Below, piece by piece: positions 53,981 through 58,132 of a stretch of 64,000 nt of DNA. Position 1 is the first letter of the stretch; every line of letters starts with the position of its first letter. Location of the stretch: contig KZ538040.1 in the NCBI GenBank assembly GCA_000934665.2, positions 62,001-126,000 of the forward strand, read 5' to 3'. Position numbers and translations under genes: made by a program. The notes below the pieces were generated by a model. The model did not search any database. It was not told the DNA's origin and was given only the letters and a program-made list of their open reading frames with translations. This DNA comes from Catajapyx aquilonaris (taxonomy: Eukaryota).

Positions 53981-54062
53981 ATGAAGGCACTATTGGCCGT
54001 GACTACCGTTGTCACCTGTGCCTTCCTGCTCCCGTTCATCCATGGAGCCGAAGACCCATCAG
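53981..54062 (+). CDS. nested secreted-protein gene A, exon 1 (signal peptide)
   Basis: caacATG context; MKALLAVTTVVTCAFLLPFIHG-AEDPS; donor G|GTATGG at 54063 (phase 1). Too short for the ORF track. Confidence 0.85.
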
Positions 54063-54161
54063 GTATGGGGGTCAACAAATTTTGGGGAAGTGGGGGAACC
54101 AACTATGGTTACTGGTGTGAACAACCAACGACCACCGTGTGAACCCGCTCTTATTCTTCAG

Positions 54162-54439
54162 CCCTCATGATGAGGGGTATCTCCAAGCTGTTCGAGCTGA
54201 CTGGCTTGACCATAGCGGCGATTGGAGAAGGAAAGACACCGACGTTCACGATCGACGGCGGAGGTAAAGCTGGAAAACTTGGCGTCCGGTCCTGGGCGAA
54301 AGGTCAAGACTACTACGACGAGTACGATCCTTACTACGACGCTCCTGCTGGACGAGATCAAGACGACTACGACGATGGTGGTGTAGGTGCAGCAGACGAC
54401 TATGCCGATGATCCAGACTATGACAATGAAGTTTATTAG
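54162..54439 (+). CDS. nested secreted-protein gene A, exon 2 (Asp/Tyr-rich tail); full protein 119 aa
   Basis: A 99-bp intron (54063-54161) ends ctcttattcttcAG. G+CC=Ala joins in frame with ORF 54167-54439. Codon usage looks coding (many gac/tac codons). AATAAA at 54506-54511. Confidence 0.85.
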
Positions 54440-54505
54440 GCCATGTCTGTGACACGTCAAGGTGGGGATTGGACACAGTGTCTGTCGATAGGTAGTGCGA
54501 GAAAG

Positions 54506-54511
54506 AATAAA
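54506..54511 (+). promoter_or_regulatory. putative polyadenylation signal of gene A
   Basis: AATAAA about 65 nt after the stop codon, followed by GT/T-rich sequence. Confidence 0.6.
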
Positions 54512-54936
54512 ATGGAGTTGATGGTCTCTAATGTGTTATTATGACTTACAGTATGGTTTGTATGGACACTGGATACGTTGCGGTAAAGCATAGCAAATAT
54601 CATACACAGAATTCACAATGCTTGACTCACCCCGTACACAAGTTGACTCATCACCTAAGGTGCGTGGAGTTACAATAGACGTCACTTTTACCTTTCAACA
54701 ATGAGATGACAGAGTAGTGTCCCTCTATAGCGGTCATGGGGCACACTTCAATGGAGACGAGACTTGCTGGTTATATCACCCTGGTGGGCTTTGCCCGCGC
54801 AGTGATTCATCACCAACGTGAATGTAGTACTACTTTCCCCCGCACGGCAGTAGTGTGCAGAGGGAGAGCCTATGCGCCAACCGGTAGAAGCCTATGTAGG
54901 CCCACTACTTCCAAGTGTAGGGAGGGGGCAAGCAGC

Positions 54937-54951
54937 ATAATAATAATAATG

Positions 54952-55019
<68 letters not shown>
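54937..55019. repeat. (ATA)n microsatellite
   Basis: Near-perfect triplet run lying between genes A and B. Confidence 0.95.
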
Positions 55020-55020
<1 letters not shown>

Positions 55021-55776
55021 GCTGGTGGCTTAACCTTTTGTGTTGAGGGAATATTATTATTTTGTCAACTGAGGTGCATTGTGAGTCACAGAAGGGGGGA
55101 GAGGGTTGAGATGAAGGGTCGGTGAATTCCCAAGGTAGGTCGCTAATGAATATTTTAAAGTCATTTTGGGGCTCTCCTTAATGCAACGGGGTTTCTCGGC
55201 ATGACCCAGGGGCAGGCCAGGGGATTTCAAATCTATCGTGAACCGAGCGCGCAGGTCAAGCTGTATTGACAGGATGTAAAATCACGGCGGAATTGCTGGG
55301 GTTATTGGCTGGCAATTTTGTTAATAGCAGAATGATTAGCAGTTTTATAGGGATTCGGAGTCCACTCATTTGCTGGCGATGGGCTCACTGCAGGATTGTA
55401 TACACTTATGGAAATGAAGCTGAATAGTGGACATGTTACGTTGCAAAATGTGGCAATAAATTTCCATCAATTAGAGCAAAACACACAGGTATGGTTCCAG
55501 ATAACTTTACTGAAGGTTATGTTGTACAGTCTTGAGACTCTGTAAGGTATGTAGCAACTAAAAGCAACAAACATGGCAACATCTGAACAATCAAAATCTA
55601 GACTGTAGGATTAGCAACGGACCAATCAAGGAAGTGGTTTCAAGTCCTAAAATATATTAGTGCATATAAAGTAAATTAGATTAAAATATTAAAATACTAC
55701 GGTGCGGTACAAAGTAAATAATTATGAAAGAAGTTATTAACATAAGAGATGAAATAAATTTTTATTAAGTAGGAAA

Positions 55777-55875
55777 TATTAAAGAAATTATCAAAGTAAG
55801 AAGTATTAAAGAAATTATCAGAGGAAGAAGTATTAAAGAAATTATCAGAGGAAGAAGTATTAAAGAAATTATTAA
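55777..55875. repeat. 27-bp tandem repeat, about 3.5 copies
   Basis: tattaaagaaattatcagaggaagaag units. Confidence 0.85.
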
Positions 55876-56535
55876 AACAATAAAAATATAATAATACAAT
55901 AAATGTCCCACAAAATATTAAAATATGTGTAATAGATTCATTAACACATTAATAAATGCAATATACATAATTGTGAAATGAATAATTATAAAATATTTGG
56001 TGCTAAATTAATATCGCCTGGTAATATACTGTAGAATCACATTCGTCATTGGCTGTCACTTCCGCCCACATTTCCGGCGCCATTGTATGTTATTAGATCA
56101 TGATCTAGAGCAAATAATCACAAATATTATTTTTAGAATATTAAAACAATAATTTAATAACGCCAAACCTCTGCATGGTTGGCTTCAACCATGACTACCG
56201 GTGACCTGAAAATGACCTAGAATTAAACGACAAACCTTGTGGTTGACGCCATGTTGGCTGCATTTTGCTGGGTACTTACCACAGCCTGTATACTTTTAAG
56301 CCTGACAGGCAAAGATCCTATATACTAACCGCATCTTATTTTTAAGAGCAGTCCGTTCCTTATATTGAATCCTGTTGTAACTGAGCGATACCCGACTTAT
56401 TGAATGCGACTCCATATCTTGACGCACATAAAAGCTGGGTCGTTTGGAGGTGATGACACAATAGGCAAATGACGCACTGCCTCTCGAACACCCCCCTCGA
56501 AGCGTATCCGAATTGCGTTCCTGAGGAATGCAACT

Positions 56536-56542
56536 TATATAG
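56536..56542 (+). promoter_or_regulatory. possible TATA box of gene B
   Basis: TATATAG about 75 nt upstream of ATG 56615; positional inference only. Confidence 0.35.
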
Positions 56543-56614
56543 AGAAGAATCGGCCGATATCCGTCCAGGTTAGCGGAGAGACTTGATCGGTTCTGGAGGA
56601 GGAGTGGATCCGGG

Positions 56615-56702
56615 ATGAACTTCCCCGTGTTGGTCCTGTCAACGATAGTCGTCCTCTGCGTCGCACCCCAGCCCTCGACACAGAATAATGAAGAGAGTTT
56701 AG
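56615..56702 (+). CDS. nested secreted-protein gene B, exon 1 (signal peptide)
   Basis: MNFPVLVLSTIVVLCVAPQPSTQNNEESL, then G|GTAGGG donor at 56703 (phase 1), the same architecture as gene A exon 1. Confidence 0.75.
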
Positions 56703-57142
56703 GTAGGGCCTCGACCCCATGTCACGATCCCCAGAATATTAGGCCGAGTTATGCACTACCCAAGGTCCACCCAGGGTTGCTATCAATTGTTGCCAACAAG
56801 GCACCTTTGAACCTTTGGTGGTAATAGAATCAAGCCTGCACTGCAGCAAACTAATTCAAAATTATGTTGGAACAACTTTAAAATTTAGAAGAAATTATCA
56901 TTTATCCACAATATTCCAAAAATTAATTAGTTTTAATTTATAACTATTTTGTTTTCAACTCCAAGTATTGACATGGTGCTGCAATTCGTCCTAATATCAT
57001 ACTCGTACATAAATCCAGCTATTTTTATCGTCGAATGTTATTCTGAATATTTCAGAGTCGTGGATTTCTGAGGCCAAAGAAAGAGGGGAAATTCCAAGTA
57101 GGCCTAATATCGCATCTTTTCAAACGATTTTAAGCTTGGTTG

Positions 57143-57351
57143 CCCAGCCTAACTTGTCATTGACGTCATCGTTTTGTTTACCAATTCCTTGTCAACGGAT
57201 GGAACAGTGACTCTGTTTACTCCCATTGCTGCTTGAGGGCAACTCCATGGGCACTTGAAAAGTTGGAGGTTCCAGGGGTGCGTTCGGAAGATTTCTATTG
57301 ACAAAGGAATCGGTAAGTGAAACGATGACGTCAATGACAAGTTAGGCTGGG
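57143..57351. mobile_element. foldback/MITE-like element (32-bp perfect TIR) in the intron of gene B
   Basis: cccagcctaacttgtcattgacgtcatcgttt (57143-57174) pairs with aaacgatgacgtcaatgacaagttaggctggg (57320-57351); imperfect pairing continues inward. No clear TSD. Confidence 0.75.
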
Positions 57352-57426
57352 ATGGTACGTCACACTGAAATGTTTACATGAGATGAGGCTGTACTTAACT
57401 GACCGTTTTGGTTGGGAACACACCAG

Positions 57427-58079
57427 CACAGGTGATGAATGGCCTGATGAAGCTCCTGCAGGTGATGAAGGACATGAAGAATGACGGAGGAGGAGGAGAA
57501 GGATCTAAGTCCAAGGGTGACAAGCTGAAGGTGAGGGCAATGGGCAGCATGGAGGAAGAAGACATCAGCGACTATGAGTACGACGAGAGTAAGCTGAAGG
57601 TCAGAGCAATGGGCAGGAACGACATGGCGCCAGTGGTGCAGAAGGAGGAGATTCCTGATAAGGAAGAGCTGATAGCTCTAGCCATTGCAATCCTCAAGGA
57701 TCCCTCAGACGACGACGATCCAGCGGTGAAGAAGGCCAGGGAGTACATTGCTGACCAAGGGTTGAGCGTCAGAGCCTTCGGAGAGGACGATGAGGTAGAG
57801 TACACAAAGCACATCACCGACGCTTTGGCCGAGCACGACGCGGCTGGCATTGAAGAGATGAAGGAGGCCTTCTACAAGTTCGACGAGATCGTGTTACAGA
57901 TGCCCGAGTTCGAGAGCAGGAATTGGCATAAGAAAGTGTTGGCTGGCCAGATGGTCGAGTCTCTTCCGGAGAACCTGAGGGACCTGCTCGATGATGTGGT
58001 CAAACGGTCCGTTGCCAGCGATTTGGATATTCACTTCGATGAGATGATACTGCAGATTAGAAACGAACTTGGTGTTTAG
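57427..58079 (+). CDS. nested secreted-protein gene B, exon 2 (acidic, repeated KLKVRAMG motif); full protein about 246 aa
   Basis: Longest ORF in the window (57408-58079), with coding-like GC3 bias. Branch-like taactgac at about 57396 and caccAG acceptor at 57425-6, with a weak pyrimidine tract. G+CA=Ala gives EESL-A-QVMNGLMKLLQV, which aligns with gene A. AATAAA at 58127-58132. Confidence 0.85.
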
Positions 58080-58126
58080 CAAGTAAAAACCACGTAGACT
58101 GTGGACAGTTTATTTTTAAATGCGAA

Positions 58127-58132
58127 AATAAA
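58127..58132 (+). promoter_or_regulatory. putative polyadenylation signal of gene B
   Basis: AATAAA about 48 nt after the TAG stop. Confidence 0.6.

Follow-up and report, generated by a model that had tools for sequence, protein, structure and literature searches.

The 64,000-nucleotide stretch analysed here (the window; positions 62,001 to 126,000 of contig KZ538040.1, Catajapyx aquilonaris assembly GCA_000934665.2) carries a pair of small genes, called A and B in the following, downstream of two immunoglobulin-domain (Ig) exons of unc-5. A and B are very probably real genes whose translated products are secreted, acidic proteins. They lie on the same strand as the unc-5 exons. The pair had been proposed in a sequence-only reading of the same DNA, in which each gene was given two exons. 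Transcript contigs are now available for both genes and define the following features:

53956..54062, + strand: gene A exon 1, with 25 nt of 5′ untranslated region (UTR) inside the contig, ATG at 53981, the leader plus 5 codons and a phase-1 end
54063..54161, + strand: gene A intron, 99 nt, GT..AG, phase 1, skipped in the 470-nt contig
54162..54524, + strand: gene A exon 2, with coding sequence to the TAG at 54437-54439, the 3′ UTR, AATAAA at 54506-54511 and the contig end at 54524
56536..56541, + strand: TATATA sequence, a putative TATA box that precedes the start of the gene B contig (56568) by 32 nt
56568..56702, + strand: gene B exon 1, with a 47-nt 5′ UTR, ATG at 56615, the leader and a phase-1 end (X1 record 5)
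57056..57097, + strand: gene B exon 2, 42 nt, 14 codons in frame, phase 1 to phase 1 (X1 record 5)
57427..58124, + strand: gene B exon 3, with coding sequence that ends in the TAG at 58077-58079, then the first part of the 3′ UTR (X1 record 5)

The contigs come from X1, a public run available in the form of 85,611 Logan contig records that total 32 million letters. It contains 31% of the sampled words of segment 53900-58200 and 18 of its records align to segment 51000-64000. The absence of three GT..AG introns from its contigs leads us to infer that X1 is RNA; the dependence on a single run, whose library type is unrecorded, weighs against the evidence drawn from it. Contig depth cannot rank genes, and the many parts of 51000-64000 that have no X1 contig were not used as evidence.

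The gene A transcript is represented by a 470-nt contig (X1 record 2; depth 128, 0 mismatches) composed of 53956-54058|54158-54524. This joint is equivalent to 54062^54162, the junction expected from the sequence. The intron splits an Ala codon (G|CC), the gene product has 119 amino acids (aa) and the contig ends 13 nt past the AATAAA signal. Sequence and contig agree in this case with the earlier proposal of a two-exon gene with an Ala-splitting phase-1 intron and a nearby AATAAA.

A single contig spans gene B (X1 record 5; 875 nt, depth 45.5, 0 mismatches). It is composed of 56568-56700|57054-57097|57427-58124, and its joints 56700>57054 (cut moved by +2) and 57097>57427 are both GT..AG. The contig stops at 58124, 3 nt short of the AATAAA at 58127-58132. 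The initiation codon at 56615, the end of exon 1 at 56702, the start of the last exon at 57427, the TAG and the AATAAA are positioned as anticipated, as is the 2.2 kb distance between the gene A stop codon and the gene B ATG. The proposed two-exon structure coding for 246 aa has to be revised: the 42-nt exon present in the contig, which is preceded by TTTCAG and followed by GTAGGC, leads to a three-exon transcript that encodes 260 aa and whose two introns are both in phase 1. The codons that they interrupt code for Glu (G|AG) and Thr (A|CA), and the Ala codon thought to be split in both genes is therefore a feature of gene A only. The direct junction 56702^57427 was not seen in X1, in which the only contig over gene B includes the 42-nt exon; skipping of exon 2 would keep the reading frame and gives a possible minor isoform. 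About 320 nt upstream of the gene B transcript start, segment 56000-56250 is covered by an unspliced and unjoined 251-nt X1 contig (depth 3.9, 0 mismatches), for which no Rfam match was found. It may derive from host pre-mRNA, mark a start further upstream or represent a small transcript of its own.

Transcription and splicing of both genes, as claimed previously, are supported by contigs without mismatches that skip the three GT..AG introns exactly. A and B are separate transcription units, their contigs spanning 53956-54524 and 56568-58124, respectively, each with its own 5′ end. No joint between the unc-5 Ig2 exon (see below) and a contig of A or B was seen among the X1 contigs over 51000-64000.

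The reading frames of the two genes are open across all joints. The GC content at third codon positions (GC3) is 0.56 in A and 0.68 in B, compared to 0.60-0.72 in the unc-5 exons and to an overall GC content of 0.36-0.49 in introns and flanks. The most hydrophobic 12-residue segment is found at residues 9-20 of A and 5-16 of B. The leader core is TVVTCAFLLPFI in A, with a mean Kyte-Doolittle hydropathy (KD) of 2.28, and VLVLSTIVVLCV in B, with a mean KD of 3.16. These leaders would direct entry into the secretory pathway. Downstream of them no 19-residue segment of A or B exceeds a mean KD of 1.06 and, therefore, a membrane span is not expected. Each protein has a single Cys, located within the leader, which agrees with the earlier statement that the mature chains are Cys-free. 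Three points count against the assignment to the secretory pathway: the leader of B has no basic residue ahead of its hydrophobic core, a Pro follows its likeliest cleavage site, and both leaders were judged by hydrophobicity rather than by a signal-peptide predictor.

The mature proteins are strongly acidic, with net charges of approximately −14 (A) and −25 (B). The last 46 residues of A include 17 Asp/Glu and 9 Tyr for only 2 Lys/Arg. All the sequence elements listed previously for the two proteins are present: the DGGG stretches, KLGVRSW in A and KLKVRAM in B, and the Asp/Glu/Tyr tracts. AlphaFold2 run without an alignment gave a mean predicted local distance difference test (pLDDT) score of 43.2 for the last exon of B and of 47.4 for its C-terminal 145 residues. 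In these models B is predicted to have a short N-terminal helix, a long unstructured Gly-rich and acidic stretch, and about seven helices in the C-terminal 145 residues; such scores make the models unreliable and are too low for a fold search, which weighs against the structural description of B.

The KLKVRAMG motif of gene B is encoded twice:

57522..57616, + strand: internal repeat in gene B, KLKVRAMG encoded twice, 69 nt apart

The two 26-nt copies (motif positions 76 and 99) are 92% identical and both differences are synonymous (GTG AGG / GTC AGA). Since the copies differ only by synonymous changes, their comparison points to selection acting on the peptide. Other short units recur in the two genes. 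A 21-nt unit (QDYYDE / QDDYDD) is found twice, 54 nt apart, at 54301-54375 of gene A, and a 23-nt unit (QVMNGLMK / QVMKDMKN) twice, 30 nt apart, at 57429-57481 of gene B. The presence of such units suggests that A and B grew partly through local repeat expansion.

The earlier conclusion that A and B belong to no recognisable family was maintained in searches of several protein collections. Pfam yielded no family at E ≤ 1 for the last exons of A and B. In a k-mer/phmmer search of 5.8 billion protein clusters, none of the 721 candidates for B and neither of the two for A passed. A full HMMER search with B identified no match at E ≤ 0.001 among 1,835,955,588 representatives. The best ESM Atlas score was 0.83 both for the last exon of B and for its C-terminal 145 residues, within the range of shuffled sequences and short of what would make a match more than a lead. 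No further paralogue was detected above noise when the window was searched with A and B by tblastn. Two types of candidate were considered and rejected. In a scan of metagenome contigs with B, 175 stretches fitted the pattern and two loci passed, both of them dismissed as chance; locus L002, the one of the two that was translated, holds a 184-aa bacterial ORF that has only KEAFYKFD in common with B. An EF-hand was considered on account of the EEMKEAFYKFD sequence of B, in which the FD is followed by EIVLQM, and no Pfam family was matched at E ≤ 1. The term orphan, as applied here to A and B, means that they have no detectable relative among the arthropods sampled. It has to be weighed against the composition of the libraries, which are devoid of this species and of its close kin (as seen in the identity of the best unc-5 match, see below), and orthologues may thus exist in unsampled close relatives.

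Two exons of the presumed host gene were identified upstream of A and B:

21312..21713, + strand: open frame that contains the unc-5 Ig1 exon, N-terminal UNC5 domain, presumed host gene
51678..51962, + strand: unc-5 Ig2 exon, AG|ATTTG ... TATG|GTGAGT, splice sites from the sequence

In a phmmer search of the PDB with the frame 21312-21713, all seven matches were UNC5 proteins, the best being UNC5B (E = 2.6e-28), followed by UNC5D and UNC5A, down to E = 1.7e-25. The same frame matches 151 UNC5 proteins at E ≤ 1e-10, those named being from arthropods, with a best identity of 67% over Ig1. The 51678-51962 segment corresponds to Pfam Ig_3/I-set and aligns over its full length with Ig2 of UNC5A/B/D. 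Its identity is 75-77% to the orthopteran, termite and cockroach sequences and 50-53% to those of scorpion and millipede. On these values the animal groups with the insects, nearest to polyneopterans among the lineages sampled. An X1 contig (depth 3.9) begins exactly at its acceptor (51678) and reaches 51911. By these PDB, Pfam and arthropod UNC5 matches the host is an arthropod unc-5 with two Ig exons in the window; the sequence-only reading had already named unc-5 as the host.

Full-length arthropod UNC5 proteins found among the Ig1 matches carry TSP1, ZU5, UPA and death domains. None of these was detected among the 98 plus-strand ORFs of at least 35 aa overlapping 52049-64000, for which Pfam returned only six rows, all unrelated and each under its curated cut-off. 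The previous statement that no later unc-5 domain follows Ig2 up to 64000 is thus correct for this set of ORFs. The Ig2 exon, with its GTGAGT donor, lies upstream of both genes on their strand; gene A starts 2.0 kb and gene B 4.6 kb downstream of it. The intron between Ig1 and Ig2 (21714-51677, with runs of N at 32902-33079 and 43296-43332) is already about 30 kb long, and an intron of more than 12 kb after Ig2, with A and B inside, is therefore plausible. No copy of A or B was found in the Ig1-Ig2 intron by tblastn. It is highly likely that the two genes are nested in the unc-5 intron that separates Ig2 from TSP1, the next host exon being expected beyond position 64000. The ZU5, UPA and death domains of the host are likewise expected to lie beyond this position; its transmembrane segment was not found in 52049-64000 either.

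The relationship between A and B is less clear than their location. They were proposed to be diverged tandem duplicates, and we consider an origin by old, fast-diverging tandem duplication to be evenly balanced on the present comparison of sequences. This proposal is sustained by short collinear motifs and not by standard protein alignment, which is at noise level, nor by the DNA of the two loci, which has no similarity. The last exons of both genes begin with x-x-[MV]-M-x-G-[IL]-x-K-L-[FL]-[EQ]-[LV], and the first 13 residues reach a gapless BLOSUM62 score of 23, a value attained by 12 of 20,000 shuffles in an anchored, post hoc test. The Ala with which this alignment had been thought to open in both proteins is present only in A, the codon in B coding for Thr. 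The L.VR[AS] motif arises in 34 of 50,000 shuffles of mature A (again post hoc). Extended to [KG]L.VR[AS][MWF][GA], a pattern built from these four sites and thus circular, it has no other copy in the 127,996 residues of the six-frame translation of the window. The order of elements (helix, DGGG, KLxVR, Asp/Tyr tract) is the same in A and B. In both genes the leader exon ends in phase 1 and the last exon is long, B having in addition the 42-nt phase-1/phase-1 exon.

Several results weigh against common descent. When the mature chains are aligned locally the score is 35, for a shuffle mean of 32.3, and 566 of 2000 shuffles reach it; in the two other local-alignment comparisons this number is 422 and 374 of 2000. 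A tblastn search of the whole window with A places the B locus (16.5 bits, E = 21) among chance matches. Five other 13-residue pairs out of 19,465 score 23 or more, mostly in the acidic tracts, and the exon-start and L.VR[AS] tests were both picked after the sequences had been seen. A blastp E value of 0.001 between A and the 246-aa version of B comes from a search space of just two sequences, with the composition correction switched off, and is not relied on. The alternative that A and B are unrelated young or fast-evolving neighbours, whose likeness is due to composition and short chance motifs, has slightly less than an even chance. It agrees with the shuffle results, with the lack of DNA similarity between the loci (best blastn match of 21 bits, E = 1.4), with the different number of exons (two in A, three in B) and with the presence of the 145-residue helical part in B and not in A. 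It does not readily account for the score of the 13-residue exon start, for the scarcity of L.VR[AS] in shuffled A and of its extended pattern elsewhere in the window, or for the shared element order and the phase-1 intron that follows the leader exon in both genes.

The explanation as a whole, comprising the two genes, their nesting and the mechanism presented here as its leading guess, has in our estimation about a one-in-two chance of being right. For the mechanism itself we tentatively propose that A and B are sulfotyrosine-bearing polyanionic extracellular ligands, a function that is possible though doubtful. Their leaders would carry them into the secretory pathway, where a tyrosylprotein sulfotransferase may sulfate Tyr residues lying among Asp and Glu. 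The products would then act as extracellular polyanionic sulfotyrosine ligands for the basic surface of a partner or for cations. The L-x-V-R-[AS] motif may serve for recognition or for cleavage by a trypsin-like protease. Sulfated tyrosines characteristically have acidic neighbours and few basic ones. In A, three or more acidic residues and no more than one basic residue are found within 5 positions of 8 of the 9 Tyr, a situation that holds for 2 of the 5 Tyr of B. Their dense Tyr/Asp tracts make the two proteins good candidates for this modification; that sequence context is its whole basis counts against the proposal. To our knowledge, tyrosine sulfation is little studied in insects.

Salivary, venom, seminal, cuticle and cement proteins had been named as examples in the earlier reading, and these are candidate roles. 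It is unlikely, but less so than for the alternatives that follow, that A and B are components of a matrix or secretion (cuticle, eggshell, egg case, spermatophore, seminal fluid or adhesive). In this case the acidic tracts would bind calcium or basic partners and the Tyr would be cross-linked, by dityrosine formation or quinone tanning, rather than sulfated. Leader-bearing, Cys-free chains rich in Tyr, Asp and Gly and the contig depths of 128 and 45.5 are compatible with such a role, while no Pfam cuticle, chorion or chitin-binding family is matched at E ≤ 1 and the C-terminal 145 residues of B have the predicted appearance of a helical domain rather than that of a repetitive matrix protein. 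A role in reproductive secretions would fit the Drosophila survey of nested genes, in which 58% of the same-strand nested genes have their expression peak in testis (PMC3814207).

We regard as quite unlikely that A and B are prohormone or neuropeptide-like precursors, whose bioactive peptides would be the KLKVRAMG units or, in B, the C-terminal peptide located after its only Lys-Arg. The small size of the genes, with two or three exons and the leader in exon 1, is in favour, as is the octapeptide repeat kept exact through synonymous changes. The Gly-Arg after the second KLKVRAMG is a possible amidation/cleavage signal, and the acidic segments could correspond to the acidic spacers that are usual in neuropeptide precursors. 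However, the KLKVRAMG repeats have no dibasic flanks, the first copy being followed by Ser. None of the pairs KR, RR, KK and RK is present in A; in B, KR occurs once and KK twice. No neuropeptide family was matched either by the last exons in Pfam or by B among the 1.84 billion representatives.

Among sulfated ligands, a more specific version considers A and B as a new secreted family of decoy substrates or exosite-type inhibitors of trypsin-like proteases (clip-domain or clotting enzymes), which is very improbable. The L-x-V-R-[AS] motif would occupy the active site, with the sulfated Asp/Tyr tail bound to a basic exosite. Such proteins would be the convergent counterpart of madanin or hirudin, directed at the haemolymph cascades of the animal itself or at another organism. 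Finally, it is hardly credible that A and B are alternative unc-5 3′ ends or non-coding by-products of the host intron, as could be thought from their position on the unc-5 strand just downstream of the Ig2 exon and from the unspliced 56000-56250 contig in the same interval, given that neither of their contigs is joined to Ig2, that each starts a short distance ahead of its own ATG and leader (32 nt after the TATA box in the case of B), that the frames are intact with a coding-like GC3, and that depths of 128 and 45.5, to be compared to 3.9 at Ig2, are suggestive of the same although not more. We keep secreted ligands as the leading guess.

Besides the genes, the region includes several repeats, one of which resembles a miniature inverted-repeat transposable element (MITE):

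57143..57351, no strand: MITE-like inverted repeat in gene B intron 2, with 48-nt arms that are 92% complementary and 113 nt apart

Segment 57161-57199 of this element is matched by other X1 contigs, which then run into unrelated sequence; copies of the element are therefore transcribed elsewhere in the genome. The DNA between A and B is AT-rich, with an (ATA)n microsatellite of about 28 copies at 54937-55019; at 55773-55876 a 27-nt unit is repeated in tandem about 4 times. The only Rfam match in 51000-64000 is a sub-threshold mir-582-like hairpin at 60188-60275 (30.5 bits for a gathering threshold of 84, E = 0.011). At least seven X1 contigs have loose ends at 60242/60282, within or near this hairpin, which suggests that it is a dispersed repeat rather than a microRNA gene. 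The X1 contigs at 61856-62324 (depth 2-8) have non-canonical joints (CA..CG, TG..GC, GC..AT) and loose ends at 62260/62299. These joints most likely result from diverged repeat copies located elsewhere and not from splicing.

No general principle is changed by these results, whose gain lies in the confirmed expression of the two genes and in the corrected three-exon model of B. If the proposed arrangement is true, it provides a well-documented case of the less frequent kind of nested gene, on the host strand and with introns. A conserved axon-guidance receptor would harbour, within one of its introns, two genes with working polyadenylation signals. The host polymerase and spliceosome must then pass both of them, a possible case for interference between host and nested genes.

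Known UNC5 genes (UNC5A-D and arthropod unc-5) have matching Ig1 and Ig2 exons, arranged in the order and orientation seen here, the difference to a complete UNC5 being that only these two Ig exons are inside the window. A and B resemble taxon-restricted orphan secreted genes: they are short, have few exons and a leader, code for low-complexity or disordered chains, and no homologues were detected in the libraries searched. Two readings, true restriction and mere fast evolution, both fit this result. Lineage-restricted secreted disordered proteins are common, and A and B are two more in this large and poorly understood pool.

The tick protein madanin has a doubly sulfated site, D-A-D-Y-D-E-Y-E-E-D, whose sulfation raises anticoagulant activity about 1000-fold according to PMC10951654, where hirudin is named beside it. 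The Y-D-E-Y sequence contained in A is the core of the madanin sulfated site as given there (PMC10951654). The likeness extends to the chain, acidic, disordered, devoid of Cys and presumably secreted, in which Tyr pairs lie among Asp/Glu, and to an Arg motif upstream of the acidic tract. It is an analogy of mechanism or function only: there is no homology, the last exon of A matching no family at E ≤ 1 in Pfam, which has a madanin family, and no protein cluster. The sources differ as well, the unc-5 exons being nearest to those of Orthoptera, termites and cockroaches, and blood feeding is not indicated.

In Drosophila melanogaster about 10% of the genes are nested, and the nested genes evolve faster and are narrowly expressed; 71% of them lie on the strand opposite to the host, and 72.5% of those on the same strand have a single exon (PMC3814207). 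Nested genes typically arise as short, young duplicates inserted into long introns (PMC5174743). A and B share with the Drosophila nested genes their short length, their apparently young or fast-evolving character and their likely position within a long intron, the host being a large and conserved gene with neuronal expression; the downstream exon of this host lies outside the window. They depart from most of them by their location on the host strand and by their introns. Two intron-containing genes on the host strand within one intron are a less common arrangement of an already known kind.

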